Part shown: positions 20,704-55,731 of the stretch, in pieces
Numbering within the stretch: position 1 is the stretch's first letter
How the letters are laid out: each line of letters begins with the position of its first letter
Virus record (IMG/VR): IMGVR_UViG_3300028299_000002
Coordinates: 21,970-85,969 of that record
From: a virus
Length of the DNA stretch: 64,000 nt
Reading direction: 5' to 3' (one strand)
Translations under genes and position numbers: made by a program
Notes under the pieces: generated by a model
What the model saw: only the letters and a program-made list of their open reading frames with translations
Database searches by the model: none
What the model was told of the DNA's origin: nothing

Positions 20704-20881
20704 TGTGCAATCTCCATCGGGAGTTTCATCCGTCTTAGAATTACTACCCCCGATTTTGAAGTTTCCATTTGTTTTGCCGTTGCACCGGCAATGCCGGATA
20801 CTATTTTGTCGGCAAGGGCTAATATTCCTTTTGATATTGCGCTGATTACACTTCCTTGAAAATGTAATATCCGGCATTTTC

Positions 20882-30118: not shown

Positions 30119-30152
30119 AATTTATTTCCTCCTTGTTTGCTTTATTTGCACA

Positions 30153-31694: not shown

Positions 31695-31704
31695 ACATTT
31701 CTCC

Positions 31705-31749
31705 AAAAAAATAGCCCATAATCATTGGTGAGTTCCAACAATTACGGGC
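31705..31749 (-). terminator. Intrinsic terminator/attenuator immediately before the protease RBS
   Basis: 15-bp stem GCCCGTAATTGTTGG/CCAATGATTATGGGC (3 G-U pairs), 6-nt loop, then UAUUUUUUU. Confidence 0.75.
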
Positions 31750-37356: not shown

Positions 37357-40300
37357 CTATATCACAAATACAATTTTATTGGATTTCATTAACACACCCT
37401 GATCATCGGTACGTTTAGCATTATCGACTAAACTCATTACCGATTTCTTATCCTCAAGCCTGGTTTCGGTTCGAATATCATGTGGTGTATCTGTCAATAC
37501 TAAATGACCGTCAACTGTCATTTCTTTGGGTACGCCTGTCCGGTTCGAACGGCTGAAGAACTGGTCTATTGTCGAATAACTATTTGCTCCACTTGCCATT
37601 GCAATAGCGGTCGTTGCCCCCATTTCGCCAGGCTTGCCGGTATATTGCAGATTCAATCCCTCTGTACCGGCATCGGTATGGATGGCGAACCGGACATTCT
37701 TATCGGTTCTGAAACTGGTTTTGTTTTTATCAATATCATCCAACTTCGTTTTTCCGTCAAATCTGACAATCCCGGACCCTGGATAATTTTTCTTTAAATA
37801 GCGTTCGATCTCGTTTACTGTACCGTATTGCTGTGCATAGATCAGTACCTTTTCGTCCGGCCCCTTTGTTTTGATATGCTCATTAATGATATCGCCCATT
37901 TTGGTAAACTTCTCATTATTTTCAAACTTGGTAGAGTTCAATACCCGGTTTAATTTCTGGTCCCGTTGCAGTACATCAAACTTTTTCGCTTTATAGTCTT
38001 CCATTGTCTTTTTATACTGTGTTTTTTGAATATCTGACAACCCGGCGTTATGAATATGCTGATTGAATGTATGTTGGAGATCCTTGCGAACTGTAAAAAC
38101 CCTGTCATCAATCTCTCGATGCAGTATTTCAGTCAGTTTATCCTTCATTCCTGCGCCACGATGAAGATTTTTGTACTTTTCCATAAAGGCTTTTTGATTC
38201 CCATATTTTTCTGGATCAATGGTCTTCAGATAGAAATAGAGTTCAGACAGATCGTTGGGAGTCGGTGAACCGGTACCCGCAACGAAATACGGCATTGACG
38301 CTGCCAGATCAGACAATCCTTTGCTCATCCCGGATGATCCACGACCTTCCCGTTGTGTTGATTTATGCGCTTCATCGACAATCATCATATCAAAACCGGC
38401 ACCTTTAATAATGTCATTATCAAACAGGTACTTTTCTTTATTGACCAATACAATCGTATTCGGATCACTATTATAGAGTTTTTGACGTGCATTTTTATTC
38501 GATGAATCAACGATTATAACATTAAAATCAGAGAATTTCTTAACCTCATCGCTGAAATTCGGCATCAGTTTCTTTGGCATAGAAATAATAGTTTTCGGCA
38601 TCTTACCCGTCTGTTCTCTGATCTCTGCGATGGCAGACAGGTAGGCCGCGCTCTTGCCGGTCCCGGCCTCGAAATTCAGATATGCCCGTTTTTCCTTAGC
38701 GATTAGTCGTGCTGCTGATTGTTGATGTGGAGTAATTACCAATTTCTGCGATACCCCGTTTTTATCCGGCGGTAAATATGCGTTCAGTCCTTCAGGCAGA
38801 TAATCACTAATATTCGCTTTACCGGCCTTAATATCTGATGTAGTCATTTCACCAATCTGTTGCTTGGTAACTATCGGACGTTCTTTGATCATTTTCTCAA
38901 ATGCGGCTGGCCGGATAGTCATTTTATAACTACCTTCGCCCAACATTGTAATATTGACATCGGACTTATTTAATTTCAGTTTATCCCTTATAGAATTGAG
39001 TCTCGAACGGCTCGAAGATGAGAATTCCATATTTCTCTTTTTATTCTCGAATTGATATAACAATTCCGCCGCCTGGTTTAATGATCCCTCAGCCTGGCCA
39101 TAACTCTCATAGGCTCTCTGAATATACTGCAATGCTGTTGCATTGGCCTGTACCCGATCGCCAAACAAGGCACCTTCGCCATGACCAAAATTCTTTGTCC
39201 TTTGCGCCCTGTCCAGATATTTATCTCCATTCTGCATTCCATTTTTAGCAACATTCTGGCCGTGTTTTTCAATGTACTTTTTAAGATTACTTATCTCATT
39301 GCCGTATTTATCGGCTCCCATGCTGTTTTCAAGATAGTAATTCATTAACATGGCAGCATTGCTCGATCCCAATGTCTTGTAAGTGTCCAGGTCCATAATA
39401 CTATTCCCGGAAGACTCACCGGTTATCCCGATCATGGCCTCAAATCCACCTTTGGTAATATTTCGGGCAATTGTTGTTGATCCCGTCCCCTTACCTGTAA
39501 TTTCCTCACCTTGCTTATTTATTCCGCCCCTGGTGTTGATAATCAGTCGGTAATGATCATCTATCTCCATTTCAACCGCTTTTTCGTTTTTCAATACTTC
39601 CAGAATTTCATCATTACTCATTGGTTTGATTTCCATGATATCACTACCACCGGTATACTTCACCTTATTCTGCAATATTTTTGAAACGGCTGACTTTTCA
39701 CGTTGATAGGCTTTGATCTGGTAATGAAATTTCAGAAATTCCTCTGCATTTTCTTTGATGATCTCCCGAAGATGTTTCTTTTCGTCCGGTAAATCCGTTG
39801 TATCTGATCCAAGCATAGCCTCTTTAGCCTCAGATATAACCTCGTCAATGGCCTTATCACGCTCAGATTTAATTTTATGGAGCTGTTTTAACCGTTCAAT
39901 ATTCCGTTCCTTTGTATCGGCTATTTTGGATATGTCTTTTTCGATTTTATCCCGTTCCTCTTTGCTTATATCGGTTTGAACGCCCAATTTCTCACGGATT
40001 TTACTATGCAATTCCTCTTTTGTCTGTTTTTGGGCAGTCTCAATCTCTTTTTTACGGTTTACGGCCTCGTCACGTTCATCTTCACTTAATTCCGGCTTTT
40101 TGTTATCGGTTTCCTCTTTTTTGGCCTCATCATTTTTAGCACTCTTTGGCTGTAATACTTTGTGAGTTAGTCCCGATTTACCAGGTGCCCAGGCAATTGT
40201 TGCGGTACCATCACTATGGGGAACAATAAATATATGTCGCCCGTGCATCGGACTTGATTTGTCGGTAATTGTGATCCACTTACCACCCGGATATTTCTGT

Positions 40301-43300
40301 TGCATCGAACCACTGAAAGACTTGATGATATAACGGATGGATTTCTTGATCTTCGTTTGTTCTACAAGTTTATATTTTCCATCGTCAATATTTTTAAGAA
40401 ATTCTGTTGGTGATTCATACGATTTATCAACTATTTCACCATTCTCATCTAATTTTTCTACGGCTACATATATTCTACCGGAATTATTTTTATCAATAGA
40501 GACATTGGCCTTGTAATCGTCAAAATAATATATCTGTGATTTGTTGTATTTTTCTAATTCAGTGACCGGCGATAACTCATAACTGTCATATTCTTCTTTT
40601 GGTAATGGCTTCGAATAAACTACTAACCCATATCTGCTTCCATCATCTTCCCAACGGACGTAACCAAATTGTTTATCGCTTGGATAGGTGCCTATACTGA
40701 ATGGCCGATAGCATAATTGATATTTGTATTCTAAAGTCTTTTTATCATCCTGTTTAGTTTTCCGGTTCTGATAATCATGTACCGTAGATATTTTTCCAGA
40801 TTTGGTTTTCCGGGTATGTTGTTTGACGTGAGACTTAAATATGAAACGGTAATTCATCTTTGCTCCAATTGGTTGCGATTTATAAATATCAATTGTCTTA
40901 TTATTAAATGTCCCACGATTATCCACCGCTTTGATTTGATTGGCTTTTAAGGTAATCCATACCCTGTGCTTTATATCAGAATTGGTTGCAATACCACCAA
41001 TATGAGTTATCCCATCATATCCATTTTCTTTGACAATTTTCTTTATGATTACATCGTTTAGATACTCTTTATCAACACTATCGCCAAACATCCCCATTTT
41101 AACGGCTGTTAATTCTTTTAATGCAGCATAAAAATTAAGGTACGTTTTGGCATCTAATAATTTGTCTTTATACAGTTTTTTATATTTATTTTCATTCCAT
41201 GTGAATCCATACGGTGCATGTTTAGACTGTTCATCATGGAAATTTTTTAAACCCTCTTTTATTTCAGGTGTATCTAATACTTTTTGTTTCAAGGATTCTG
41301 GTATCGGATCATCCATATTCAGCGGATTTTTGATATTCAGATACACCGAATATGTCATAGGTTCTAATGGCTTTAAATTCTTTTTCAGGCGACTATAAAA
41401 CTCCCGGTCTGTTGGCATGTGTTCTTTGTGCATGTATTTAGAGCTATCAATATATTGATTTAATTCAACATCACTCATATTGGGAACGCTTTTCAGACTG
41501 GCTATTCTTTTCTTTAGTGCAGCTCGTCGGCTTATCAACCAACCAGGTGATATTGATCCATAACCATATTTACTGCCAAGTTTATAATATTCCCGATAAT
41601 CCTTTAGTCCCTCTGACTCTTTTATCATTTTCAGAACATCAGCCAGTTTCTTTTCATTTTCCTTAACACATTGGGACGCAATATTATTGATCGTCTTTCT
41701 TACTTCTTTATCCTGAAGATTATATAATTCATCATAGGACGTGCCTAATAATGGTATATCCAATCCCTTTTCTTTGTATGAATCGGCAACTTCCTTATTT
41801 TCGGTAAAATAGAATCCTTTACCCATTAATCCCGGCAATAGAGTATTGGGATCAAATGCTTTAAATCCACCATAATGAGTACCATGAAATACAATAAGCG
41901 GTTTACCGGTTTTATCGATAACCTTACTGGATTTATCCGGTTCATTTTCCCAATCCCCAAACCATGCTTTAAATTCAGGGCTTTTTATATTTAATGATTT
42001 ATAATTTTCTATCCCCCTATTGATAAGATAATTTGGCAAATCCTTTTGGGTTTGTTGAGCATATATACCCTCTTTTACCTGCACGAACTTTCCGATATTC
42101 AATCCGGTGCGCAACTTGAATATTTCTTCCATCCTCTTTTTACGTTCTTTCATCCCGGAAGTAAGCAGGGGACGACTTATTAATGTCCTGTAATCATCAA
42201 TATATTTTTGCCGCCATTTTTTTGACTTCCATTTTGGATTTTTTTGAACACTATTATCGTATGATTTCACCCGTACTATTTTACCCCGACTGCTTGCTCT
42301 TACATGCTGCTTTACATGCGATTTGAAGATGAATCTTACCGACTTCGTTATATCCGGGTCTTTCGGGTCGAATGTACCTCGATTACCGATTGCTGATTTG
42401 ATCTGATTCGGATTGAATGCTATCCAGTTATCATAATTCAATTCAGGATATTTGGTTTTACCAGATTTAATATAAACTCCGTCATATCCATTTTTTATCC
42501 CCCATTCTCTCATTGATAAGAAATAATTCCTACTGCTTTCATATTGGCCCTTGTCGTATTTCGCTCCCTCTACGCCTCTCCAAAAATCAAGGTCTTCCGC
42601 AAAATCTTCCGCCTCTAATTCAATTGGATTTGTGATCTTGAGATATACAGGGATAATATTTCCGCCCTCTTTGTCCGCAAATTCATTGGCAAGTTTTATA
42701 TCCGTTGCAAAATAAAATCCATAATGAGCAGATGGATGAGCTGATCTACCAAGCATCATTTCATCAAATATTTTGAAATTCTCATTCGTCCCGTGATAAA
42801 CCACCAATGGCTTTCCATCCTTATCCACAACCTTAGAATTACCGAACCACTTTTCGAATTCCGGCGTATCGGTTACGGGTATTTTATTCCTCAATTCATT
42901 CTGTTTTGCAAGTTTCAGAATTGCTTCATTGCCATGCTGAAAATCCTTTGTGCTGGCTGCCTTTGTTAATAAACCCGGTTTGAATGTCGTATATCCATCA
43001 GTCAATGCTTTATCAACTGCCTCTAATTTTGTTTTGCAATAGGATTCACCACTGAATCCCTTTTTATCGAACCATGTAATTTGCCATTTATAATTCTCAT
43101 CGGAACTTTTCCTGATCAATGCTCCAAGCCAATAACCATCACCATTGGCCATTAATTCCATTGGTTTATTGCCGTATTTATGATTCCAGTATTTTAAGGC
43201 CAAATGTGCTTGTAATTTTGTCGTTATCGGCAGTGCATGATATTTTGAGATTTCATTCAAGTCCAGTATGTGCTTAGAATAAAGAATTCTCTTATGAACT

Positions 43301-45831
43301 TTAATATCTCTATCTGTAATACTGGAAGATGATCTGAGTAGATAAGTATATTTGAATCCATCGCCCCTCAGATTGTCTCTTATGTCGTTATCCGGCTTTT
43401 CTTTTAAGTATATTTCAGCATAATCCACACCCTTTTGCTGAATAGCATCCATGATATTTGCATCATTCAATTTGATTATCTTATTATCGTAATCAGAGAC
43501 ATGCACTACTTTACCTGTCTTTGTAGCTCTGAAATGCGATTTTACATGAGATTTCGTTATATCCGGGTCTTTCGGATTAAATTCACCGCTATTACCAGTT
43601 GCCGATTTGATTTGAGTAGGTGAGAATACAGCATAATTACATGTACTATTCTCTTGCATTTTTATCCCATCGTAACCCAAATCATTTATTATTTTGAAAA
43701 TATCTTCTTTGGTAAGTTCAAATAGTGTCCAGTTATCTTGTTTTTTTAAATATGTTACCTTTTTCGAAGCCCTATACGAATGTATTGTGCTATGTACGTG
43801 ATCAAATATTGCTCTCCGATATTCATTATCACTAACATCCCCATTTATTCTGGCTTGTTTTAACTGATCGGCTGTATAGATATCATTATAAAGTCTATAT
43901 CCGTTTACTTCTACTGGTTTGCCGTCCATTAATAATGCTTTTTGTTCGTCGGTGATGTGATTTATTACATCGTATCTGCTATGTGTGGTATATATTACTT
44001 CGTCCTTCGTTTCTCCAATAAATAGATCATTATTGTAACCAAAATGATCCTCTCCAATTACTTTGCCAAATTTGGCATTATCAATCTGTTTTTGTTTCCA
44101 TTTTGGTGGTACTGATACATTACCATGCAATCTTCTTATAAAGCCTTTTTTGGTTAATATTTTACCCGCAAATCCATAATGAATTTTATCGGGTAAGGCA
44201 CTCATTAAGTTATCCAAATCAGGCTTATTATTCGGATTAAACAATTTCTCAGATTTTAAATATACCGGTAAAACAATTGCACTATTATCTATACCCCGAT
44301 CAATTGCTTTTGTCTCAGCATAATCTCTGGCAAAATTCTGATCGTCGGAAAAAAAGAAGTTGTTACCCCTAAAAGCCTTGAATTTATATAATGTCCCGTG
44401 ATAAACCACCAATGGCTTTCCATTTTTATCCACAACTTTAGAATCACCAAACCACTTCTTGAATTCCGGTGTCTCGGTGATAGGTGTCTGTTTCTTCGTT
44501 TTCCGGTTCTGATAATTCCTGACCTGGACGATTTTACCTTTAGAAGATACTCGTTGATGTGCTATGACTTGCGATTTATTTAATGATGAGAATCTATTTA
44601 TGGCATAATCTATCAGTTCATTGAATTTGCGCTTTGCATCCATTGACGCATATTGTTTTTTCTCGTTTAAATTATCCGACATTTCAACAAATGCCTGTTT
44701 CATTTTCTTAATATCATTGGTTTTAGCAACTACATCAAATTTGGATTTTTGCTCACTGATTATCTTTGCCTCACTTATATCCCGGTAAAGTTTGTCAATT
44801 ATACCCCAGATATTAAAATTGCTTCGATAACTTGCTTTTGATAAAATGTTGCCAGTATTTTGAACATAACTTTCAATAATTCGTTGTTCTTTGTCTGTCG
44901 GAGAAAAACCCTCAAAAGACATTCCTAATTGTTTTAACGGTACATTTTCAGAAACAAATTTCTCCCATTCCTGATCATTCATTGTTCGTCGCATTGAATA
45001 AAGTATCGTCAGCTCTTTATTTCCCGCCGCCTCTTTTTGTATCTGTACCCACATTTCAGGCATATATCTACGGATATATCCATGATAGGTCATTTTCGTA
45101 CCGTCTTTTAATTCAACTCCCCATCGAAAATAGTGATTTGATTCATCACTTTTATACCAGTAATCTTCTTTGTTTTCATACACTTCGTTTGCAAAAGCAA
45201 GTCGGTCATTCCCATAATTATCGACATAATCCATTTTCGGAGCATTCAGGTCTTTAAAACTATTCAACCGCCTGGCAATAACAGGTGGTTTACCACTTTT
45301 GGTTTTCTTATTCTCGTAATCCTTAACACTAATCATCTTGCCGGTTTTGCTCGTTTTAGTGTGGGACTTTACGTGCGATTTCTCGATCTTCTTACCCTTC
45401 TTCTCAATCCTCTTTTTGAATGTTTCCATATCCAGTATATCATAACTCTGGAGATACTTTTTATAGTCATCATAATGCTCTTTGAAGGTTTTCAAAGCAT
45501 CCGGCAATGTATCAAATCCCAGAAATACCTTATCCTCATCATATTTATTATTATCGGGATGTTTGATGTGAATGACATAGACCTTATCCGATTCTTTATT
45601 TGGTCCAACAAAGCAATCCAAATGATCACCATCAGTTCCCAATGTCCCCCGGATATAACCATAAGGGATTTTCATTTTCGTTTGCCATTCGCCGTTTTTA
45701 TCCTCTCCACGGCGGATTGATCCCTTACGGTTCTCGACACTTATAGGTAGTCCCTGGAATACTGTTTTATAATGAAGTTTGCGGCTCTTGAATATAAACC
45801 GCACATTACTGAGTATTCTCAAATCATTCAT
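37357..45831 (-). CDS. Giant polyvalent protein: InPase-like, 3x ART-PolyVal-like, DarA_C-like, SNF2 helicase
   Basis: GDHLDCFVG/DEDKVFLGF; three PEFxxWFG..YHGT..GYDG..QIKS domains; YRPFSIGTYP..YELSP; AGTGKS, DEAH, TEGLNLQ. Confidence 0.85.
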   Translation of the reverse strand: MNDLRILSNVRFIFKSRKLHYKTVFQGLPISVENRKGSIRRGEDKNGEWQTKMKIPYGYIRGTLGTDGDHLDCFVGPNKESDKVYVIHIKHPDNNKYDEDKVFLGFDTLPDALKTFKEHYDDYKKYLQSYDILDMETFKKRIEKKGKKIEKSHVKSHTKTSKTGKMISVKDYENKKTKSGKPPVIARRLNSFKDLNAPKMDYVDNYGNDRLAFANEVYENKEDYWYKSDESNHYFRWGVELKDGTKMTYHGYIRRYMPEMWVQIQKEAAGNKELTILYSMRRTMNDQEWEKFVSENVPLKQLGMSFEGFSPTDKEQRIIESYVQNTGNILSKASYRSNFNIWGIIDKLYRDISEAKIISEQKSKFDVVAKTNDIKKMKQAFVEMSDNLNEKKQYASMDAKRKFNELIDYAINRFSSLNKSQVIAHQRVSSKGKIVQVRNYQNRKTKKQTPITETPEFKKWFGDSKVVDKNGKPLVVYHGTLYKFKAFRGNNFFFSDDQNFARDYAETKAIDRGIDNSAIVLPVYLKSEKLFNPNNKPDLDNLMSALPDKIHYGFAGKILTKKGFIRRLHGNVSVPPKWKQKQIDNAKFGKVIGEDHFGYNNDLFIGETKDEVIYTTHSRYDVINHITDEQKALLMDGKPVEVNGYRLYNDIYTADQLKQARINGDVSDNEYRRAIFDHVHSTIHSYRASKKVTYLKKQDNWTLFELTKEDIFKIINDLGYDGIKMQENSTCNYAVFSPTQIKSATGNSGEFNPKDPDITKSHVKSHFRATKTGKVVHVSDYDNKIIKLNDANIMDAIQQKGVDYAEIYLKEKPDNDIRDNLRGDGFKYTYLLRSSSSITDRDIKVHKRILYSKHILDLNEISKYHALPITTKLQAHLALKYWNHKYGNKPMELMANGDGYWLGALIRKSSDENYKWQITWFDKKGFSGESYCKTKLEAVDKALTDGYTTFKPGLLTKAASTKDFQHGNEAILKLAKQNELRNKIPVTDTPEFEKWFGNSKVVDKDGKPLVVYHGTNENFKIFDEMMLGRSAHPSAHYGFYFATDIKLANEFADKEGGNIIPVYLKITNPIELEAEDFAEDLDFWRGVEGAKYDKGQYESSRNYFLSMREWGIKNGYDGVYIKSGKTKYPELNYDNWIAFNPNQIKSAIGNRGTFDPKDPDITKSVRFIFKSHVKQHVRASSRGKIVRVKSYDNSVQKNPKWKSKKWRQKYIDDYRTLISRPLLTSGMKERKKRMEEIFKLRTGLNIGKFVQVKEGIYAQQTQKDLPNYLINRGIENYKSLNIKSPEFKAWFGDWENEPDKSSKVIDKTGKPLIVFHGTHYGGFKAFDPNTLLPGLMGKGFYFTENKEVADSYKEKGLDIPLLGTSYDELYNLQDKEVRKTINNIASQCVKENEKKLADVLKMIKESEGLKDYREYYKLGSKYGYGSISPGWLISRRAALKKRIASLKSVPNMSDVELNQYIDSSKYMHKEHMPTDREFYSRLKKNLKPLEPMTYSVYLNIKNPLNMDDPIPESLKQKVLDTPEIKEGLKNFHDEQSKHAPYGFTWNENKYKKLYKDKLLDAKTYLNFYAALKELTAVKMGMFGDSVDKEYLNDVIIKKIVKENGYDGITHIGGIATNSDIKHRVWITLKANQIKAVDNRGTFNNKTIDIYKSQPIGAKMNYRFIFKSHVKQHTRKTKSGKISTVHDYQNRKTKQDDKKTLEYKYQLCYRPFSIGTYPSDKQFGYVRWEDDGSRYGLVVYSKPLPKEEYDSYELSPVTELEKYNKSQIYYFDDYKANVSIDKNNSGRIYVAVEKLDENGEIVDKSYESPTEFLKNIDDGKYKLVEQTKIKKSIRYIIKSFSGSMQQKYPGGKWITITDKSSPMHGRHIFIVPHSDGTATIAWAPGKSGLTHKVLQPKSAKNDEAKKEETDNKKPELSEDERDEAVNRKKEIETAQKQTKEELHSKIREKLGVQTDISKEERDKIEKDISKIADTKERNIERLKQLHKIKSERDKAIDEVISEAKEAMLGSDTTDLPDEKKHLREIIKENAEEFLKFHYQIKAYQREKSAVSKILQNKVKYTGGSDIMEIKPMSNDEILEVLKNEKAVEMEIDDHYRLIINTRGGINKQGEEITGKGTGSTTIARNITKGGFEAMIGITGESSGNSIMDLDTYKTLGSSNAAMLMNYYLENSMGADKYGNEISNLKKYIEKHGQNVAKNGMQNGDKYLDRAQRTKNFGHGEGALFGDRVQANATALQYIQRAYESYGQAEGSLNQAAELLYQFENKKRNMEFSSSSRSRLNSIRDKLKLNKSDVNITMLGEGSYKMTIRPAAFEKMIKERPIVTKQQIGEMTTSDIKAGKANISDYLPEGLNAYLPPDKNGVSQKLVITPHQQSAARLIAKEKRAYLNFEAGTGKSAAYLSAIAEIREQTGKMPKTIISMPKKLMPNFSDEVKKFSDFNVIIVDSSNKNARQKLYNSDPNTIVLVNKEKYLFDNDIIKGAGFDMMIVDEAHKSTQREGRGSSGMSKGLSDLAASMPYFVAGTGSPTPNDLSELYFYLKTIDPEKYGNQKAFMEKYKNLHRGAGMKDKLTEILHREIDDRVFTVRKDLQHTFNQHIHNAGLSDIQKTQYKKTMEDYKAKKFDVLQRDQKLNRVLNSTKFENNEKFTKMGDIINEHIKTKGPDEKVLIYAQQYGTVNEIERYLKKNYPGSGIVRFDGKTKLDDIDKNKTSFRTDKNVRFAIHTDAGTEGLNLQYTGKPGEMGATTAIAMASGANSYSTIDQFFSRSNRTGVPKEMTVDGHLVLTDTPHDIRTETRLEDKKSVMSLVDNAKRTDDQGVLMKSNKIVFVI

Positions 45832-48800
45832 TTATTCACCACCGAATACTGATTTCCGTAGTTCTTTCTGTTTGCGAATGACCTTAAACATCTTGTCAAA
45901 TTCTTTATTTATAGTTGTTCTTTCCTCTTTTTCCGGATATGGTATTGCGATAAAACCATCTATCATAGGCACTATAATTTCTCCATGAGCTCGATAAACA
46001 AGAAAATCACTCTGGTTTCCTTTACCCTTGATCTTATCCTCTATATAGGCCGCAAATGCTCTGGCTGCCATCTCATGTGGTTCGCTCCAATAATCACCAA
46101 CCCGCGCTTGGTCCAACTTTTTCGCTTCAATCGCATAGGATGTCGGGACAGATTTTGTCTTTACAGTTGATTTCTTTGCATCATTAACCATTTGTAAACG
46201 ACCATCATATATTTTCATTGCAGCTGCAAGTTCATCCATACATCCATACCTGTTTTGATTATCAAAACCAGATCGTCCTCTAACATCTTTATATATTTTG
46301 CTAATAGATTCAAGCGTATCAGAGGAAAAATGACCGGAACCATATCTGCTTTTACTATTAGTGGATGGATAGTATTTTAATTTCAGGTCTTTCCCTTTTA
46401 TCAGTAGTTTGGTCAATTTGTCAAATTCGGCAAGTTGTTCCTTTGACGCTGGTAATAATCCCCTCGTATTACTTCGCCAGGTATATGTTTTAGTCAGATC
46501 GGATTTAAGGTCTTTTCTAATTGAATCAATAGAACTTTTTATTTGTTCCCGCGCTTTATTGACAAATATATCGACCTTTTCCCTGTCTTCGACATATTTC
46601 ACAGGCTTTTTATAAATATTATCCATTAGACTTTTAAAAGTAGCAATCATTTCCGGTTTTAATTGGGAATGATAACCTTCACCATGACTAATAAAATTCC
46701 TATCGATGTTCGTTTTCCTAAATACCTTATCGCCATTGTCATTTATTATCTTTTCGGATGGTGACTTTGAATCTTTACGTGCAAAATAGTGATCCAGGGC
46801 GTGAAAATACTCGTGCCCTAATGCCCCCGCACCCTTCATTTTAGTCAAGTTGATTACACCATAATCCAGTTCATAATGAGCTTTTGCACCGGACAATCCT
46901 GCGCCCCTTGCCCCAAATGCAATTGCCAATTCACCACCAAGCATTAATTCACTCGGAGTTACACCTAATACATCCGCAAGGTCTAATAATCCATCATAGG
47001 CGTGATTCAATACCTGTTGACGTTCAGATTGATTATTCCAATTACCAAATTCAATGCCTCTTGGTTTGAACTTTTTCATAAACATTTCAGGAGTGGCATC
47101 TTGATTCCTTCTTACGGTTCCTCTTCTAATCGCTATTTCGGGAGCGGGTAATATTTCTTCCCCAAAAGTAGTTTTCGTTTCCAATAATTCTTCAGCATGT
47201 TTTACCATGTATAATTTTGCCTCTTCTTCAGTTGCAAATGTCCGATCTACAATTTTCAGAAACTTCCTGTCTGTTATCCTTTTTAATATTGAATATCTGT
47301 CCTTTTCATTTCGATCTTGGAATACCCTGAATTTTTCCGCAACTGCATATAATGGTATCGCCTTTTCAGCCTCTTTTTCTGAATTATATACGGAATCCCG
47401 CCTGGTTGCTAATCCATATTTATCACCCTTTTTGCCAATTACCCAACCACTCCCATCAACTCTTTTCAATACTATATATTTATCCCGCCACGGTGACAGA
47501 GTATTCTTTTTTGTCGTCCGTTTATTTCTGGAATAGCCAAATTGCGCCGTATCCTTTCTTGCCCCACCTATCTTTTTACCAAAATCAATGATATTGCCCT
47601 CTTTGCGTCGTGCCAATACTTTCTTTTTCGCCGCTCCGGTTACTTCTTTCCAATCTTCAGGCTTGCCGGTACTTTTAATCTTCTTCCACATGGTCCCGTC
47701 TTTATGAACCGACACATGTCCAACCGGGAACACTTTACCCCTGATTAGAAAATGAACAGATTTTAATAACTTACCGAAATCAAATTTCAGACTGAATTTT
47801 ACTTTACCCCCCGTAGTATCTATTTCAGTGTAATAATCCATTGCACTGTTGTTCAATAGTTCAAATCCACTGCCAGGATAATATTGCCCGTCGTTCTTTC
47901 CCGTTGTATATATCATTTTGTTCTTATTGTGATCGCAGTAGATAACACTGTCTTGATTATACTGCTTCCCAAGTTCAACGAGTTCTTTGTCCTTGACATT
48001 CGGGACCATAACCATATAACTGTCTTCAATTTCGCCATATTTACCGGTGACTTTTACAAATTTCAATCCCTTTTTAATAAGGTCTTCCCGTAGTTTCTTC
48101 TCACGGTTTTTTATATCCGGTTCCGTTAGTTTTTTATCATCGGGATCATTGGGATTAATCCCGGCGCTGATAAAGCCTACAATGCCATATTTTAATAACG
48201 TAGTGACTTCCTTTTTGGATAAATGTATTTCACCGCCTTTACCAGGCATATCTTGTTTACATTTCTCAGATAGCGATTCAGGTATTTTGGCATTGTGATT
48301 GTTTTTCGAATCCTCTTTAGGCAATTCCCATGACCGATTTATTGGATGCCCGGAACTTACCGGACTCTTTTTAGTCTTCTTATTCGTATATTGATTTACG
48401 GTTACTAATTTCCCGCTTGCACTCATTTTCGTATGTTGCCTGACTATCGATTTGAATAGTTCAAAGGATTTTCTTACCCATCTTTTCTTCCGTGTTTCCT
48501 TCTTCACATTCTGTTTTGTTAGATATTGTTGTACCGAGCCACCGCTATGAAAAAATGCGTCTGCCGTTTCCAGCTCTTTCACGATGGTCGATAAATAATT
48601 CTGGAGTAATTTCAACTCCTCTTTGGTTTTGCCAAGTTTCCCCTGCTGCTTCAGTATCGCCGGTGCCAGTTTGTAATTCTTATTGTCAATGATCCTTTCC
48701 GCCGCTTTGACCACATTACCCAATAATCCGGCTAATTGACGTTTAACCGCCTCAACCTTGTTATTATTGATCTGGCTTATACCGGTTATGACATTACTGG

Positions 48801-51414
48801 ATTCCGGTGATCCGAAGAATGATGTTTGGTTCTGTGCCTGTTTATATCGTGATACAATCCCATCCAGTTCATCTTTACTGATCTTCTTTTTCGAGTCGGT
48901 GATCTTTTTCAATACCTCAAACTGGAATTGTGATCTCAATCCGGCCAATCCGATTAATATACCGTGAGATTCCGCCAAATCACCATGTCTGATCAGATTG
49001 CTTATTTCCGGGATCAATGTGGTAAGTGATAATTTTCGTTGTACGGTTAATGGAGATACGCCCACACGTTCGGCAATTTCTTCATAACTCATATCAACGT
49101 CTTTGAGTTTTTTATAGGCATTGGCCGTTTCAATCGGATTCATCTCTTGACGGGCAAGATTTTCCGCAACCTGGATGGCATAAAGTTCTTTTTTATCCTT
49201 GACATCTAATATCTGTGCCGGGATAGTTGGTAATCCGGCCAGTTTAGATGCTCTCCAACGCCGTTCACCAAATATAATTTTATGTGTACCGTTTTCAATC
49301 GGTCGTACTCCAATCGGCTGCATCAATCCGATTTTACGGATGGAGTCACCCAATTCTTTTAATTTCTGCTGATCAAAATCAACCCGTGGCTGGTCCTCGT
49401 CCCGGACAATCATATTAACACTAATTTCCTGAACATTGGCCTTGCTTTTTGGGATCTCCCCTGATGATCCAAATAGGGATGTCTGACTTGGTTCTTCCGG
49501 CTTTTTGACTTTAGAGTTCTCATACGGATTAATAAGTACCATCTTTCCGGTTTCTGTAGTCCGGAAATGACCAGATACGTGGGATTTGAATAGGAGGCGG
49601 ATGGATTTATGCAATTTGACAATTTCTTTATCATTTACCCATGTTCTATTATCATTACCTTTTTCATCCTGATATTGAATACAATATATTGGTTTACCTT
49701 TATCCGTTTTATCCAATTGACATACTTTGCCGGTCAATGTTCTTGATTTATGACCGTATAATGCCCCAATATCCTTCTGATGGATAGTTACTTGATCATA
49801 TAATCGGATTTTTGTTTTTATTTGATTTTTGATCTCATTATTACTTTTTTTTGAATAGTAATTGTATATCTCATCATAATTCATATATTTTTTAGAACGT
49901 GATCCGATTTCTTGATTAATAAATTTGCAAAAATGATCTGGCAGTATATCGACTATATAATCATAAGAAACATTTTTATTATTCCTATTTGCTTCATATA
50001 ATTTGAACCAGAATGAACCGTCAGAAAAATATGGTGGTTCGCCCATTATAAAACGCCTTAAATCATCTCCCGATTTTCTTGATTTAATTTCTTTAATAAA
50101 TACCGGAAGGATAATCTTTTGATTCTTTTCAATATCTGATGTTAGCAATGGATATTTGATATTTGTCGCACCCGGTATTTTAGTTTTGGAGTTACTATAC
50201 TCTCTCACACTCGCAATCTTACCCAAGGCCGTTACCCGTGTATGTGCCTTTACATGGGATTTCTCTATTTTACCACCCTTTTCATCCTTCGCTGGTTCGA
50301 TCCGTTTGCCCTTATCGTTTTCCGGTGTCAGTTCGCTCCATACCTCAATGAAGTTCTGCTCATCTTCAGTAAATAGTTCATCATAATCATCCGGTGTATA
50401 CTTACCGCCCGGTTCATTCTTTTTATTTACCTTTGGCAATTCAAACGTATCGCCCTTACTTTTCGCTAAGGCAAATTTCCGGGACAGTTTACCTTCCAGG
50501 TATCCGTTTAACAGTTCCGGTGATATATAATTAGTTCTGCATACGTTTGGTGTATTACCCAGATGTTCAGAAACAAATTTCAATGCTTCCGCAACAACCT
50601 TTTTACGCTCGTTATCTTCACCCTTGTTTCCTGCATTAAGCAGCTGTTTTGTGAATTCAGCATTGGCCCTGAATGTCCGTAAATCCTTCGCCGTTAATCC
50701 GTATATACCAAGATATTTATTCACTCCATCGGAATTGACATTGCCCTTTGCGTCAATCTCAAATAACCGTTCCCCAGGCAATTGCTGTAATTGTCTTAAT
50801 GATTCTACCACAACCGGATCGGTGATCTCATGGGATTGCTCAACACTTTTTTTACCGATATAATTCAGAGTAACCGAATTCTCATTGAATATCACATGTT
50901 TTTTCAACAATGTGGTTATTCCATGAGTATCATTGCTTTCGGTATATTTTTCATTACCAACACGACCACCCGTTAAATCAATAATACGAACGGCCAAAGC
51001 AGTATATTTCTTAACCATATTGCTGCCGTTGATATCGTTATTTACGGCTTCCCGGAGTTCCGGGAGTCGATGGATCGCATTGGTGATCCGTTTATATTTT
51101 TCGCCTTGTTTTTGATCTACAAACTGCTGCTGATATCGCCGTTGTAACCTGCCCTTACTATCACGCCATTCATGGGTATATTTATCGTGCTTATCATAAG
51201 CATAGGCATGTTTAGCGTCTTCCGGGATGCCATGTTTTTTATATTCCGATGGATCAATAGCCTGGCGTTTAGCGGCCTTATTTTCCTTTGGTTTGGCTTT
51301 TCGCCCTGTCGGACGTTCACCATATTGAACATCGCCCTTTTTATCAATCCAATATTTGCCGCCTCTGGCTCCCGGTCGTTTGATTTTCGATGTCGATTTG
51401 AATATAAATTTCAT
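45832..51414 (-). CDS. Giant polyvalent protein: topoisomerase IB, ParB, DUF3293-like, LPD5/zincin/LPD1
   Basis: DSKGRLQRRY, GGRVGN, KDLRTF, LGNT..NY; QPIGVR..GERRWRA..ENLARQ; NQDSV; FGKKIGGARKD, HEYFHALDH, EMAARAF. Confidence 0.85.
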   Translation of the reverse strand: MKFIFKSTSKIKRPGARGGKYWIDKKGDVQYGERPTGRKAKPKENKAAKRQAIDPSEYKKHGIPEDAKHAYAYDKHDKYTHEWRDSKGRLQRRYQQQFVDQKQGEKYKRITNAIHRLPELREAVNNDINGSNMVKKYTALAVRIIDLTGGRVGNEKYTESNDTHGITTLLKKHVIFNENSVTLNYIGKKSVEQSHEITDPVVVESLRQLQQLPGERLFEIDAKGNVNSDGVNKYLGIYGLTAKDLRTFRANAEFTKQLLNAGNKGEDNERKKVVAEALKFVSEHLGNTPNVCRTNYISPELLNGYLEGKLSRKFALAKSKGDTFELPKVNKKNEPGGKYTPDDYDELFTEDEQNFIEVWSELTPENDKGKRIEPAKDEKGGKIEKSHVKAHTRVTALGKIASVREYSNSKTKIPGATNIKYPLLTSDIEKNQKIILPVFIKEIKSRKSGDDLRRFIMGEPPYFSDGSFWFKLYEANRNNKNVSYDYIVDILPDHFCKFINQEIGSRSKKYMNYDEIYNYYSKKSNNEIKNQIKTKIRLYDQVTIHQKDIGALYGHKSRTLTGKVCQLDKTDKGKPIYCIQYQDEKGNDNRTWVNDKEIVKLHKSIRLLFKSHVSGHFRTTETGKMVLINPYENSKVKKPEEPSQTSLFGSSGEIPKSKANVQEISVNMIVRDEDQPRVDFDQQKLKELGDSIRKIGLMQPIGVRPIENGTHKIIFGERRWRASKLAGLPTIPAQILDVKDKKELYAIQVAENLARQEMNPIETANAYKKLKDVDMSYEEIAERVGVSPLTVQRKLSLTTLIPEISNLIRHGDLAESHGILIGLAGLRSQFQFEVLKKITDSKKKISKDELDGIVSRYKQAQNQTSFFGSPESSNVITGISQINNNKVEAVKRQLAGLLGNVVKAAERIIDNKNYKLAPAILKQQGKLGKTKEELKLLQNYLSTIVKELETADAFFHSGGSVQQYLTKQNVKKETRKKRWVRKSFELFKSIVRQHTKMSASGKLVTVNQYTNKKTKKSPVSSGHPINRSWELPKEDSKNNHNAKIPESLSEKCKQDMPGKGGEIHLSKKEVTTLLKYGIVGFISAGINPNDPDDKKLTEPDIKNREKKLREDLIKKGLKFVKVTGKYGEIEDSYMVMVPNVKDKELVELGKQYNQDSVIYCDHNKNKMIYTTGKNDGQYYPGSGFELLNNSAMDYYTEIDTTGGKVKFSLKFDFGKLLKSVHFLIRGKVFPVGHVSVHKDGTMWKKIKSTGKPEDWKEVTGAAKKKVLARRKEGNIIDFGKKIGGARKDTAQFGYSRNKRTTKKNTLSPWRDKYIVLKRVDGSGWVIGKKGDKYGLATRRDSVYNSEKEAEKAIPLYAVAEKFRVFQDRNEKDRYSILKRITDRKFLKIVDRTFATEEEAKLYMVKHAEELLETKTTFGEEILPAPEIAIRRGTVRRNQDATPEMFMKKFKPRGIEFGNWNNQSERQQVLNHAYDGLLDLADVLGVTPSELMLGGELAIAFGARGAGLSGAKAHYELDYGVINLTKMKGAGALGHEYFHALDHYFARKDSKSPSEKIINDNGDKVFRKTNIDRNFISHGEGYHSQLKPEMIATFKSLMDNIYKKPVKYVEDREKVDIFVNKAREQIKSSIDSIRKDLKSDLTKTYTWRSNTRGLLPASKEQLAEFDKLTKLLIKGKDLKLKYYPSTNSKSRYGSGHFSSDTLESISKIYKDVRGRSGFDNQNRYGCMDELAAAMKIYDGRLQMVNDAKKSTVKTKSVPTSYAIEAKKLDQARVGDYWSEPHEMAARAFAAYIEDKIKGKGNQSDFLVYRAHGEIIVPMIDGFIAIPYPEKEERTTINKEFDKMFKVIRKQKELRKSVFGGE

Positions 51415-51608
51415 TTTTGTTCATCATTCCCCGGCTCCTCTGCTTCATGCCAATTTTTAATTGTTATATCGGTGATTTCTTCTTCTGTCACCTTATAAAT
51501 CTCTTTATTTTTCCTGATTACAGGATGCAAATAAATAACACCATGCGTATCAGTGCAAGCTACAATACATTCCTCTCCGGTTTTATTATATAAGACGTGA
51601 CGTGCCAC
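51411..51608 (-). CDS. Hypothetical protein
   Basis: 65 aa, ATGA-coupled to the polyvalent gene. Confidence 0.55.
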   Translation of the reverse strand: MARHVLYNKTGEECIVACTDTHGVIYLHPVIRKNKEIYKVTEEEITDITIKNWHEAEEPGNDEQK

Positions 51609-51976
51609 TATATCCTTTTTACCAGTTCAATCATTAATCCGGCAACCAACGCCCCGCCTATATCCCAGATGAGAAAATACTGCAAACTGAATTTCCGACC
51701 GTAAAACGCCAAACGTCTAATAACATTACTCAATAATGATTTGTCCGGATTAACGGTGAATTTATAATGCCATATTTTAAATCCGTCAATAATATTGAAT
51801 AATGTCATAATCCCATAAGCAATCAGTATTCCATAATGGTATAATGACCCCAAAATAATTGATAATACAAACGTCGCCGCCATCCGTCTGCAATACCGAT
51901 ATTCCCGGATTAGTTTACCGTTCCGTTGAATATGACTGTAACCGATAAATCTCAGATCATAATTGATTTCAAACAT
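51608..51976 (-). CDS. Membrane protein
   Basis: 2-3 hydrophobic segments. Confidence 0.55.
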   Translation of the reverse strand: MFEINYDLRFIGYSHIQRNGKLIREYRYCRRMAATFVLSIILGSLYHYGILIAYGIMTLFNIIDGFKIWHYKFTVNPDKSLLSNVIRRLAFYGRKFSLQYFLIWDIGGALVAGLMIELVKRI

Positions 51977-51991
51977 ACGACCCCCAAATAG

Positions 51992-52288
51992 TTATAATAC
52001 AACCACCGTGGCAAACAGGATTGCCAATATTATATCACCAAATGTATCATACCAGTATTTTTCAATTGTACCATATATTTTCTTAACTATTTCCCAATCA
52101 CCCTTGCATTCAATTTTAAATTCTATTCGCTCCCAAATAATAGCGACCAATAAAACAATAAGCACCGATAGCCATCCGGCAAACCAGATATTAGCAAACT
52201 TGGCAATAGTTCCTCCTGCAATAGCATGGAACCATCCCCAATAATTCCCGCAAAATCCCCAATACAATAATTTTTTGTACCATTTCAT
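51992..52288 (-). CDS. Membrane protein
   Basis: WFHAIAGG, WERIE, DTFGDIILA; three TM-like segments. Confidence 0.6.
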   Translation of the reverse strand: MKWYKKLLYWGFCGNYWGWFHAIAGGTIAKFANIWFAGWLSVLIVLLVAIIWERIEFKIECKGDWEIVKKIYGTIEKYWYDTFGDIILAILFATVVVL

Positions 52289-52495
52289 TTAATCATCTCC
52301 CCTGCCACGTTTCAGATCGGCAATTTTGGGTTTTTTAATATATTCAACACAATCTTTGTATGAATTTTCATCGTCTGGTTCCGGTTCTTCACATGACTCG
52401 TCCGGTTCGATGTCGTCCTCTGATTCATCGTCTAACTCAATATTATCCGGCGCAGCTATATTCCTGATTCTTAATATTTCATCGGTAATTGTCAT
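52289..52495 (-). CDS. Small acidic protein
   Basis: Asp/Glu-rich core. Confidence 0.5.
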   Translation of the reverse strand: MTITDEILRIRNIAAPDNIELDDESEDDIEPDESCEEPEPDDENSYKDCVEYIKKPKIADLKRGRGDD

Positions 52496-52503
52496 TTAAT
52501 TGT

Positions 52504-53535
52504 CTACAATCCATAAGTTTTTAAATCATACGAACTTAATTTGAATTTCTTTTTGACATCAATATTTCGCGCCTCGCGCTCCAACTCCGCAATAGTTCTC
52601 TCAAGAGACTCAATTTCCCATTTTGTCGTCGCATTTTTTGCGATATCTGCCGGTACCGGATTGGCATCAATGACATCCCCTGTCTGATTTGTGTTATTAA
52701 CCGGTTTCTGGTTATTGAACAGTTCTCTCATCGTTTCCAGTTTATTCCGCAATTCGGAAACTTTAAGAATAATACTGTCCTTGATACGCTGGCCGGATAT
52801 ATCGAATTCAAGGGATTTGGATAAACCACTGTTATAAGAGTAGTTTTGACTTTTAAGGTCTTTTATAAAAGCATCCCTTTTCTTAATATTCCCAAAAAGC
52901 CGAATACCCCAGAATGGACTGCCATCCCTATTCTTCGTTTTGCCATCGTGGTAACTAACAACATATTTTGCTTTTCCGACATTGTATTGGAGATCATACA
53001 GTTTTTTACTCTTTTTCCCTGCCGGTTTTTTGTCGTCCCTATCGGCCTTGACTTTATTATATACATCAGCAAGTACATTTTTATCAACTGTCCCTGGTTT
53101 TCCGTTGGACACTTTATTTATAAATTCTTCCAAGCTATTTGCATGTTTTGCCTTTTTGTACAGTATGGCATTTACTCGTTTCCATTCTGGACTGAGATTT
53201 TGGGTTTTCTTCGTCTTCACATTTTGATACTGTGAGACATTCGCAATCTTGCCGGTCTTTGTTTTTCGGGTGTGCGCCTTCACCGTCGATTTACTCAGCC
53301 CCGCACCGCGTTCCGGTAATAGTTCCTCTACCGATTTTGTAGCCAGCATCTTCTTTGCTGTCTTTTCATCCACATCATAATGCGTCATCACCCGTTCAAT
53401 ATCAGTCTTCGGTTGCCCCTGTTTTCTTGTCGATTTAATCAGTATCCAACCATCGTCTGTTTGCACAAAACGGCTCATTGCCACCGGTTCATCTTCACGA
53501 TGAAGATTTCCATTTTTGTCTGCTACGTATATCAT
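52504..53535 (-). CDS. Multi-module protein with KS sites and one basic tag
   Basis: ILIKS, GLSKS-TVKAHTRKTKTGKIANVSQYQNVKTKK, GLSKS. Confidence 0.7.
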   Translation of the reverse strand: MIYVADKNGNLHREDEPVAMSRFVQTDDGWILIKSTRKQGQPKTDIERVMTHYDVDEKTAKKMLATKSVEELLPERGAGLSKSTVKAHTRKTKTGKIANVSQYQNVKTKKTQNLSPEWKRVNAILYKKAKHANSLEEFINKVSNGKPGTVDKNVLADVYNKVKADRDDKKPAGKKSKKLYDLQYNVGKAKYVVSYHDGKTKNRDGSPFWGIRLFGNIKKRDAFIKDLKSQNYSYNSGLSKSLEFDISGQRIKDSIILKVSELRNKLETMRELFNNQKPVNNTNQTGDVIDANPVPADIAKNATTKWEIESLERTIAELEREARNIDVKKKFKLSSYDLKTYGL

Positions 53536-54138: not shown

Positions 54139-55269
54139 TCATCTCAATTCTGGATTTTTATCAAGCCATTTACGTCGTTCAGCGTCTTCTTCATCACTGC
54201 TGACATATTTTATTTCACCGTCCTTGATATACATATATTCACTGTAGAATCTGACCCACCGGCACCTCCCACTCACATGACACAATACCCCCGGACTTGC
54301 CAATTCGTGATGTTCACGGTTTACATATCCCTTATCTACCTTTTTACGTTTCGCCGTAGACCTTCCTATATTCGTTTTGGTTGACCAAATACAGGTATCC
54401 CATATCTTTGCTATGCTTTGGTACTTATCGCTTGCCACGGGCAAATTAGCGTACTCCGGCGGTGGATTATCAATTACTTTCATCACCTTACCATGAATAT
54501 TATCCAAACACCATCCGCAAGCATCTATATGACTAACGCCTACCACATATTCACCGGATCGGACACCACTGATAAAACCGGCATTAACTAAAGTATTCAT
54601 TTCAGTAATGGCAATTCGCTCCATATCCCGGTTTAACATACTGTCATCACCAAATTGCTCAAATAAACGCTGTGCAAGGGTTTCAGGGCTTATACCATCT
54701 ATATTTGCATTGATCAATAATTGTCTAAGCCGATGCTGTGACGCTTCGCTAATACCTTTTATGTGTTCGGCGGCTAAATGTTCTGCCATATTAATATATC
54801 TGACCTGTTCCCAGGTTAATTTCCCCTGATTTATGGCATCCCGGACAGATTTAGGTAAATTTGCAAGGTCTAATGCAATCTCTTTTTCACCCAATTCCAC
54901 CATGGCTCCCACCAGGAACGATTTCAGGACCAGTTCAGTGATACGTTCGATCGGAATACCAAATAATTTTGCTAAGAATTCCTGAAATTTATCAATGTCT
55001 TTATCAGACATTTTCTTTTTTAACAGGTTTTTTTCGGTAATGTACTTTAGGACACTTTCATTCAGATCCTTGCGTTTCCACAATTGACCGTAATATTTGT
55101 TCTCAAGTTCGGCAATTATCTTATTTTCACCATCGCCGGGTTTCAACCGGTGTGCGTGCTTGGACTTATTCAGTCCCAATACTTCAATCAAACCATCTAT
55201 GACAATGGATTTCTCAAATCTCGTTGCATTCATTAACTGTTCAGGAATTTGGATATTTATCTCTGACAT
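54139..55269 (-). CDS. Head morphogenesis protein (SPP1 gp7 / Mu gpF-like)
   Basis: DMERIAITEMNTLVNAG, DACGWC, CHVSGRCRW. Confidence 0.85.
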   Translation of the reverse strand: MSEINIQIPEQLMNATRFEKSIVIDGLIEVLGLNKSKHAHRLKPGDGENKIIAELENKYYGQLWKRKDLNESVLKYITEKNLLKKKMSDKDIDKFQEFLAKLFGIPIERITELVLKSFLVGAMVELGEKEIALDLANLPKSVRDAINQGKLTWEQVRYINMAEHLAAEHIKGISEASQHRLRQLLINANIDGISPETLAQRLFEQFGDDSMLNRDMERIAITEMNTLVNAGFISGVRSGEYVVGVSHIDACGWCLDNIHGKVMKVIDNPPPEYANLPVASDKYQSIAKIWDTCIWSTKTNIGRSTAKRKKVDKGYVNREHHELASPGVLCHVSGRCRWVRFYSEYMYIKDGEIKYVSSDEEDAERRKWLDKNPELR

Positions 55270-55270
55270 A

Positions 55271-55621
55271 TCAATTCCCGTTATCCCTTATTACCTTAAA
55301 TCCCTCTTTGGCCGAATATTGCAACATTCTGAAATGAAAATAAGGATACATCTCACATACCATTTTCCATTTCACCGTTGAATCTTCCATGATATAACCG
55401 CCCTTGATTTCCTCAAAACTGACCACGCCAGTATTATCGATGATCATAAAATCCGGAGTATAATAGCACTTATCACCCAGGCGAAATTTCACACCCTCAA
55501 ATTTATAATCTCTGATCTCACCATTCCGTTTTAACGCTTCAAGGCTCCAGGCATATTTTGCCTCAGTCTTGTTCATTGTGCCTTTTGGTAATCGCCCGGC
55601 TCGTGCAAACTGTTTTATCAT
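55271..55621 (-). CDS. PD-(D/E)XK endonuclease (DUF1064-like)
   Basis: MNKTEAKY..YTPDF..EIKGG; probable ATG at 55621. Confidence 0.75.
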   Translation of the reverse strand: MIKQFARAGRLPKGTMNKTEAKYAWSLEALKRNGEIRDYKFEGVKFRLGDKCYYTPDFMIIDNTGVVSFEEIKGGYIMEDSTVKWKMVCEMYPYFHFRMLQYSAKEGFKVIRDNGN

Positions 55622-55731
55622 TACCCGCACCTGTCAAATAAATATGTTCCAACCATTAGAAGAACGATAAATAGAAACACCATTGCTATCTGAAATGAAT
55701 CCCCGATTTTCCGCCTTGTTTTATACTTCAT
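55621..55731 (-). CDS. 36-aa single-TM protein missing from the ORF track
   Basis: MKYKTRRKIGDSFQIAMVFLFIVLLMVGTYLFDRCG*; TAATG overlap with the next gene. Confidence 0.55.
   Translation of the reverse strand: MKYKTRRKIGDSFQIAMVFLFIVLLMVGTYLFDRCG

Follow-up and report, generated by a model that had tools for sequence, protein, structure and literature searches.

Why should one short basic peptide recur nine times in three neighbouring proteins of a phage, each time at the head of a different module? The question is raised by a 64,000-nucleotide (nt) stretch of viral DNA (positions 21,970 to 85,969 of IMG/VR record IMGVR_UViG_3300028299_000002; hereafter the window), part of a 90.6-kb record with a completeness estimate of 58%. 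The peptide, called the tag below, lies in open reading frames (ORFs) of 2824 amino acids (aa; 37357–45831), 1860 aa (45832–51414) and 343 aa (52504–53535). All genes relevant here are on the minus strand of the window, and the tag-bearing genes stand a short way downstream of the portal gene (55743–57599), between it and the genes for the prohead protease and the major capsid protein (MCP) (28529–31706). We describe the tag as a family that is widespread in uncultured phages and for which no earlier description was found in the literature. As to what it does, the reading we favour, and to which we would give roughly an even chance, is that it is a two-part module header for virion-packaged polyvalent cargo, composed of a removable leader with a cut site and a retained basic hairpin. 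To our knowledge, T4 is the only phage in which the loading and release of injected enzymes are understood, with a partial understanding in P1.

Results

A repeated peptide in three phage proteins

The nine copies share the consensus φ-x-K-S-H-V-K-x-H-x-R-x-T-K-x-G-K-x-x-x-V-x-x-Y-x-N-x-K-x-K, where φ is a hydrophobic residue. Five are in the 2824-aa protein, three in the 1860-aa protein and one in the 343-aa protein; the coordinates given are those of 32-residue cores, and arrows mark predicted cuts. The first tag of the 2824-aa protein (45289–45384, residues 150–181; 52 bits) follows an InPase domain and heads a domain without a family match, and the second (44485–44580, residues 418–449) heads an ART-PolyVal module. 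The third (43462–43557, residues 759–790) comes after ...D-P-D-I-T-K↓S, and the module behind it ends in ART-PolyVal. The fourth (42232–42327, residues 1169–1200) has a double-site spacer, K↓S-V-R-F-I-F-K↓S (42322–42342), ahead of it, and the fifth (40744–40839, residues 1665–1696) heads a DarA_C-like module. In the 1860-aa protein the first tag (50170–50265, residues 384–415) follows a topoisomerase IB module; the second (49495–49590, residues 609–640) has the spacer K↓S-I-R-L-L-F-K↓S (49585–49605) ahead and heads ParB; and the third (48361–48456, residues 987–1018) is preceded by K↓S-F-E-L-F-K↓S (48451–48468) and heads an S-AdoMet-lyase/DUF3293-like module. The single tag of the 343-aa protein, which has no family match, occupies 53200–53295 (residues 81–112).

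A first-pass annotation, made from the letters and the translated ORFs, had reported nine such copies in these ORFs, each directly after a KS site and each heading an unrelated domain. All nine were found, within ∼10 nt of where it had placed them. Each scores 49–60 bits with the family hidden Markov model (HMM), no other stretch in any of the six frames of the window exceeds 2 bits, and the 90.6-kb record holds these nine copies and no further one. Pfam searches bore out the variety of the domains behind the tags (ART-PolyVal, DarA_C, ParB_N and S-AdoMet lyase/DUF3293, plus domains without a family match). The KS does stand directly before the tag in 9/9 copies; its treatment as a mere neighbour did not survive, as φ-x-K-[S/A] belongs to the family signature described below (∼80% of 283 copies, a frequency biased upward by the K-S columns of the search profile).

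Nine positions are invariant in all nine copies (K2, S3, V5, H8, G15, K16, Y23, N25 and K29), and every one has I or L three residues ahead of the Ser. Mean copy-to-copy identity is 52% at the nucleotide and 48% at the amino-acid level, and the longest DNA word shared between two copies has a median of 8 nt, with one pair sharing an exact word of 19 nt. Selection acts on the peptide and not on the DNA, since identical residues among the nine copies use the same codon in only 43% of cases. A cassette repeated or recombined at the DNA level was rejected on the 8-nt median and this codon scrambling. The hairpin has a net charge of +3 to +9, and all nine window copies are internal, starting at residues 81 to 1665.

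AlphaFold2, supplied with 135 family copies, predicts a two-stranded β-hairpin with a core predicted local distance difference test (pLDDT) score of ∼95, in agreement with the hairpin guessed from the letters; with 18 double-site copies as input, a leader helix precedes the same hairpin. The tag had also been taken not to be a named domain, and nothing in Pfam, NCBIfam, PHROGs, PDB sequences or Foldseek contradicted this. At E≤10 no Pfam family covers the tag in tag segments and small tag-bearing proteins, no NCBIfam family lies over it, PHROGs gave none for the 343-aa protein, and Foldseek of the hairpin model against the PDB returned nothing under E 1.8. The best PDB match of a 135-copy profile was a chance C2H2 zinc-finger helix (E 0.7). 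Atlas structural neighbours of the hairpin, including an HU arm, are generic hairpins and were set aside as having no evidential value.

The tag family in uncultured phages

A profile made from the nine copies was scored against 1.84 billion representative proteins and matched 166 protein clusters at E≤1e-3 and 22 at E≤1e-10, many of them with 2–5 copies; from these, 288 copies (283 distinct) in 153 proteins were extracted. All members of the family are metagenomic. Numbered from the invariant Gly (0), the family consensus has a hydrophobic residue at −15 (80%), K at −13 (80%), S/A at −12 (79%), V at −10, H/Y at −7, R at −5, K at −2 and K at +1, followed by V at +5 (96%), Y/H at +8, D/N at +10 and then R/K-x-K-K.

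Of the 153 proteins, 45 have a tag that starts no later than residue 12, invariably in the form M-(hydrophobic)n-K-[S/A]. The tag is at the C-terminus of no phage protein (the residues after the last copy number 210 at the median), and successive tags are spaced by a median of 223 residues, or about one domain. This header position, the existence of N-terminal copies and the wide range of domains that follow the tag all favour a signal common to the modules over a linker. Pfam partners among the 87 tag proteins scanned were InPase (13), ART-PolyVal (9), S-AdoMet lyase (9), DUF3293 (7), Zeta toxin (5) and LPD1 (3), and also DUF5661 and RadC. Judged from these domain matches, the partner set in nearly all family proteins is the phage-type polyvalent repertoire, as far as the text of Iyer et al. 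2017 (PMC5512222) sets it out.

The phage members are confined to phage-type polyvalent proteins near head genes. One contig (L001) carries 16 tags over seven consecutive genes right after the portal gene, and another phage contig has its tag-bearing genes inside the head region. A degenerate DNA pattern that was agnostic to the leader retrieved 33 IMG/VR loci, most with clustered tag-bearing ORFs.

Hairpin-like repeats were also seen in proteins of ∼100 residues with signal-peptide-like N-termini, encoded on two bacterial metagenome contigs (L004, 6001–6312; L005, 226–537). These proteins consist of tandem repeats of the form V-K-G-Y-T-R-K-T-K-S-G-K-x-V-x-V-K-G-Y-T-R, and their genes lie in a bacterial chromosomal context beside a gene for an extracytoplasmic function (ECF)-type sigma factor. 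The same hairpin may here be put to use outside phages, through convergence or distant relationship.

Leader and hairpin as separable elements

The leader motif φ-x-K-[S/A] is kept even in extreme N-terminal tags (M-φ-φ-φ-K-S...), where no module needs separating. Double-site copies, of which there are 18 in the family and three in the window, have the form K↓[S/A]-φ-x-φ-φ-x-K↓[S/A] around a hydrophobic heptapeptide, and no φ-x-K-S lies inside or just after the hairpin. The leader is also found without this hairpin: at the N-terminus of the 2824-aa protein, where residues 1–15 are a hydrophobic leader ending F-I-F-K↓S, in a tag-less spacer at residues 1830–1837 of the same protein (K↓S-I-R-Y-I-I-K↓S), and at the N-termini of the 1860-aa protein and of a sigma-factor-like protein of 317 aa. 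Leaderless hairpin cores occur after Q-x-x-L-F-G (contig L006) and directly after M-K-K-E-K (L032 and L037). Leader and hairpin are separable, because hairpin cores lacking the leader exist as well, in records in which the phrog_1028 protease discussed below was not found.

A second hairpin-like N-terminal tag is common to the 1860-aa protein (51319–51414; M-K-F-I-F-K-S...R-G-G-K-Y-W-I-D-K-K-G-D-V-Q-Y-G-E) and the sigma-factor-like protein (36768–36863; M-I-I-I-K-A...R-G-G-Q-Y-W-V-D-K-H-G-N-I-Q-Y-G-E), both of which open with the common hydrophobic leader and its terminal K-[S/A] (M-K-F-I-F-K↓S in the 1860-aa protein). The shared second tag and leader suggest that the sigma-like protein is also head cargo.

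The ParB module of the 1860-aa protein is flanked by Q-T-S-L-F-G (49471–49485, residues 644–648) and Q-T-S-F-F-G (48814–48828, residues 863–867), both on the minus strand, which resemble beta-sliding-clamp-binding motifs. Such a motif was considered as a general companion of the tag and rejected, as it follows only 5 of 288 tags, with a background of 0.7% per window of sequence.

A candidate cut site of the head protease

The leader motif is concentrated in the head proteins. The prohead protease-scaffold fusion of this phage (30153–31706; phrog_1028, E 1e-20) is of the SPO1/Herelleviridae type, and the MCP (28529–30118; phrog_752) is a homologue of the SPO1 MCP (E 1e-26). In the fusion, φ-x-K-S was observed 13 times versus 0.9 expected from shuffled sequences, for which reason the fusion is taken as the probable enzyme and its own main substrate. 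Observed and expected counts were 5 and 1.1 in the portal, 4 and 0.5 in a 376-aa protein encoded near it, 14 and 5.9 in the 2824-aa protein, 10 and 3.7 in the 1860-aa protein, and 3 and 0.8 in the 343-aa protein; in tail and other window genes the motif is near zero. The N-terminus of the MCP carries V-A-K↓S, M-M-K↓S and M-Q-K↓A (K41), the last of which aligns with the SPO1 site, the MCPs of SPO1 and CP-51 having L-N-K↓A at residues 23 and 26, respectively. The MCPs of Herelleviridae lose ∼23 N-terminal residues.

The same enrichment was found elsewhere. The annotated scaffolds of SPO1 and CP-51 each hold 11 φ-x-K-[S/A] versus 1.1 expected, and their proteases 5–6 versus 1.0. In the protease/scaffold ORFs of five tag-bearing IMG/VR records the counts were 19 vs 2.7, 14 vs 1.6, 14 vs 1.5, 11 vs 1.0 and 5 vs 0.6, and two contigs (L002 and L047) combine a phrog_1028-family protease with the same motif enrichment in these ORFs. 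Overall, the motif is ∼10-fold over the shuffled expectation in scaffolds here, in seven other contigs, and in SPO1 and CP-51. A tblastn search with the protease domain matched 634 cultured phage records, mostly phages of Staphylococcus, Bacillus, Enterococcus, Listeria and Lactobacillus, with SPO1- and CP-51-like Herelleviridae at the top (E 1e-14 to 5e-17 against the SPO1/CP-51 type).

The first-pass annotation had suggested an HMM search for co-occurrence of the tag with this protease type, and the outcome was positive: tags led by K-[S/A] accompany the phrog_1028 protease and scaffolds rich in φ-x-K-[S/A]. The protease is present in 5/5 leader-bearing records with a completeness of 60% or more, and in 0/5 records whose pattern match was a chance one or a leaderless hairpin; small fragments were mostly uninformative on this point (4/5). 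These statistics, together with homology, point to φ-x-K↓[S/A] as the probable cleavage motif of the SPO1-type protease family.

Two further motifs lie at protein ends. The 2824-aa protein closes with ...L-M-K↓S-N-K-I-V-F-V-I (37357–37383, minus strand), in which φ-x-K-S stands eight residues before the end and is followed by a hydrophobic strand resembling the internal spacers, and the C-terminus of the 1860-aa protein is ...L-R-K↓S-V-F-G-G-E.

Carrier proteins and gene order

In the 2824-aa protein Pfam identified InPase, ART-PolyVal (four stretches, corresponding to three or four domains), DarA_C and a C-terminal SNF2 helicase (SNF2/DEAD/Helicase_C); in the 1860-aa protein it identified Topoisom_I (topoisomerase IB), ParB_N, S-AdoMet_lyase/DUF3293 and LPD1. 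Both proteins combine several unrelated effector domains in one polypeptide and are linked to late/virion genes, the phage-only domain set is represented by InPase, and by their domain content they are typical phage-type polyvalent proteins.

The gene order runs from the portal through a small resolvase-like gene, the 376-aa protein, a 132-aa ORF, the 343-aa protein and two small ORFs to the 1860-aa and 2824-aa proteins and the sigma-like gene; the protease-scaffold fusion and then the MCP gene follow further on. The 376-aa protein (54139–55269) has no family match. Its C-terminal Cys/His-rich motifs (C-G-W-C ... C-H-V-S-G-R-C-R-W) recall, we presume, minor head proteins of the MuF/SPP1 gp7 type, and F-E-K↓S and L-N-K↓S can be read from the translation near its N-terminus. 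The gene in the interval between portal and 376-aa protein (55271–55630, 119 aa) resembles a Holliday-junction resolvase or endonuclease (phrog_190, E 9e-18). A reverse transcriptase gene (19693–20877, minus strand; phrog_1423, E 2e-128) lies amid structural genes and is consistent with a diversity-generating retroelement.

Discussion

A proposed two-part header for packaged cargo

In the reading we favour, the first part of the tag would be the short hydrophobic leader ending in φ-x-K↓[S/A], recognised and cut by the SPO1/Herelleviridae-type prohead protease. At some junctions two sites would bracket a heptapeptide such as S-V-R-F-I-F-K, a region that is helical in the AlphaFold2 models. The leader could possibly serve in addition as a scaffold-like docking element, removed in the manner of the T4 capsid-targeting propeptide. 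The second part, the basic hairpin of ∼28 residues, would remain on each freed module, forming its new N-terminus (Ser-His-Val-Lys...), and act as a common handle by which the modules are held in the head, at first on the acidic scaffold and later on the DNA packaged there. The modules would afterwards exit with the DNA and act beside it. We infer, in other words, cleavage, packaging, and DNA or scaffold binding of the modules. The scaffold has a strongly acidic Asp/Pro tract (30600–30750, minus strand), roughly D-D-D-P-D-P-D-D-D-P-D-D-D-P-D-A-D-P-D-A-D-P-D-D, whose composition makes it a possible electrostatic partner of the basic hairpins; candidates for the partner of the hairpin in general are the acidic scaffold, DNA, the protease and a host target.

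Several points weigh against this reading. One targeting signal suffices per polyprotein, and a header on every module fits various roles after cleavage equally well. The case for cleavage and packaging is drawn from motif statistics and gene position, and the leader frequency carries the upward bias noted above. Within the library searched, no published cleavage specificity was found for SPO1-, A511- or K-type proteases. Among cultured phages (50,697 records searched by tblastn with one tag and one two-tag protein) there was no convincing copy of the tag; a match in Chryseobacterium phage MA9V-2 (E 4) was false by HMM. The hairpin-like repeats in bacterial signal-peptide proteins show that a bare hairpin is not intrinsically a capsid signal. 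Lastly, a weak resemblance to the N-terminal hairpin of bL35 (E 0.3 with the nine-copy profile) was lost when the larger 135-copy profile was used.

The hairpin could instead work before release and have no later role, as an exosite that docks on the prohead protease and presents the upstream bond so that junctions are cut exactly. This would account for the zero spacing between K↓S and hairpin in 9/9 copies, for the fixed register in ∼80% of the 283, and for the way the leader accompanies the protease type across records. However, the 13 φ-x-K-S of the scaffold have no hairpin, so that the motif by itself seems sufficient, and some junctions of the cargo are likewise hairpin-free (e.g. residues 1830–1837 of the 2824-aa protein). 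In the 45/153 proteins with an extreme N-terminal tag a cut would free only 4–12 residues and separate nothing, and the leaderless cores occur in records without a detected phrog_1028 protease. We consider docking of this kind quite unlikely. A role confined to the time after injection, in which the hairpin is an arm that targets nucleic acid or the nucleoid (phage DNA, or host DNA or RNA) and capsid loading is left to the leader or to MuF-like or portal contacts, seems improbable to us as well, if a little less so. The strong positive charge of the hairpin speaks for it, as do the many partners with nucleic acids or nucleotides as their targets (ParB, topoisomerase IB, SNF2 helicase, S-AdoMet lyase and InPase) and the clamp-like motifs right before the L006 hairpin and around ParB. 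Yet these motifs are too rare behind tags to be general, the PDB profile and Foldseek searches turned up no solved nucleic-acid-binding hairpin that resembles the tag, and such an arm does not require a strict N-terminal header position or coupling to a cut site.

The location of the tag between swapped, unrelated domains, and the one pair of copies with a 19-nt exact word, might also be expected of a passive structured linker or a recombination cassette for domain shuffling, without any signal function. But the typical shared word, with synonymous sites scrambled, is too short for homologous recombination, nine residues are invariant at a mean identity of only 48%, conservation of these residues extends to the 283 copies from unrelated phages, and N-terminal copies link nothing; we give this explanation very little credence.

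Comparison with known systems

The closest functional parallel to the proposed two-part header is, by analogy, T4, and P1 DarB is the other. In T4, proteins are directed to the core by propeptides that gp21 cleaves off, and the internal proteins, which are basic, are ejected along with the DNA (PMC9026906). Like the T4 capsid-targeting sequence (CTS) of IPI-III and Alt, the tag is a short peptide that heads unrelated cargo, an ADP-ribosyltransferase included, and has a prohead-protease motif (a candidate one in the tag), which in the CTS forms its end; the T4 cargo is injected with the DNA, and its internal proteins are basic, as described by Mullaney & Black 1996 in the account given by the review (PMC9026906). 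The T4 CTS is ∼10 residues long, is found at N-termini only and is removed at L/I-x-E, whereas the hairpin here has 28 residues, lies downstream of the predicted φ-x-K↓[S/A] cut, would be retained, and is internal up to five times per protein. Removal by the prohead protease would thus not extend to the hairpin, the predicted cut taking off only a leader of 4–15 residues, and only this short leader could be CTS-like.

In P1, DarB residues 1–30 are enough for loading into the capsid (Gonzales et al. 2022, PMC9024508), and the Dar proteins have no common consensus (PMC9024508). The resemblance lies in a signal of ∼30 residues on a giant helicase-containing anti-restriction protein encoded beside the portal, and in the 2824-aa protein, too, DarA_C and an SNF2 helicase are found. 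Unlike the tag, the DarB signal is single and is not known as repeated or linked to a cut site. Homology between the two was rejected, as the tag HMM gave no match to DarB even at E≤100.

Iyer, Burroughs, Anand, de Souza and Aravind (2017, PMC5512222) list InPase as phage-type only among polyvalent domains, and in the text of that paper that was searched, processing of polyvalent proteins is ascribed to an intrinsic zincin-like metallopeptidase (MPTase) domain. The same searched text contains no repeated inter-domain hairpin and no prohead-protease sites, whereas the junctions described here carry the probable motif of the head protease. The head genes themselves resemble those of SPO1 and other Herelleviridae (SPO1 gp3.2/gp3.3, CP-51 gp32/gp33) in having a homologous protease, a scaffold packed with φ-x-K-[S/A] and an aligned MCP site; unlike in SPO1 and CP-51, protease and scaffold are fused in this phage. 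In the portal-proximal genes of CP-51 that were examined there was no hairpin tag of this family.

Implications

A more specific form of the header would be a portable two-step address label employed across a large group of uncultured phages, in which the helical leader loads the enzyme and is clipped off with the scaffold, and the retained hairpin tethers the enzyme to the packaged genome; we put this forward tentatively and regard it as rather doubtful. If it were true, the whole arsenal would be co-injected and would work in cis on the incoming DNA, and new effector domains could be delivered merely by placement behind the label.

The φ-x-K↓[S/A] specificity proposed for the SPO1-type protease is directly testable in cultured phages. 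An intrinsic metallopeptidase is the only published idea of how polyvalent proteins are processed; here, a conserved and easily recognised header would couple a head-protease cut site to a retained hairpin. Should the header function hold, it would provide a sequence rule by which cargo of the virion, and the fragments it matures into, could be predicted for metagenomic phages, and it would account for the exchange of unrelated effector domains into and out of polyvalent proteins. If that function were confirmed, the tag would also offer a compact means of loading foreign proteins into capsids.

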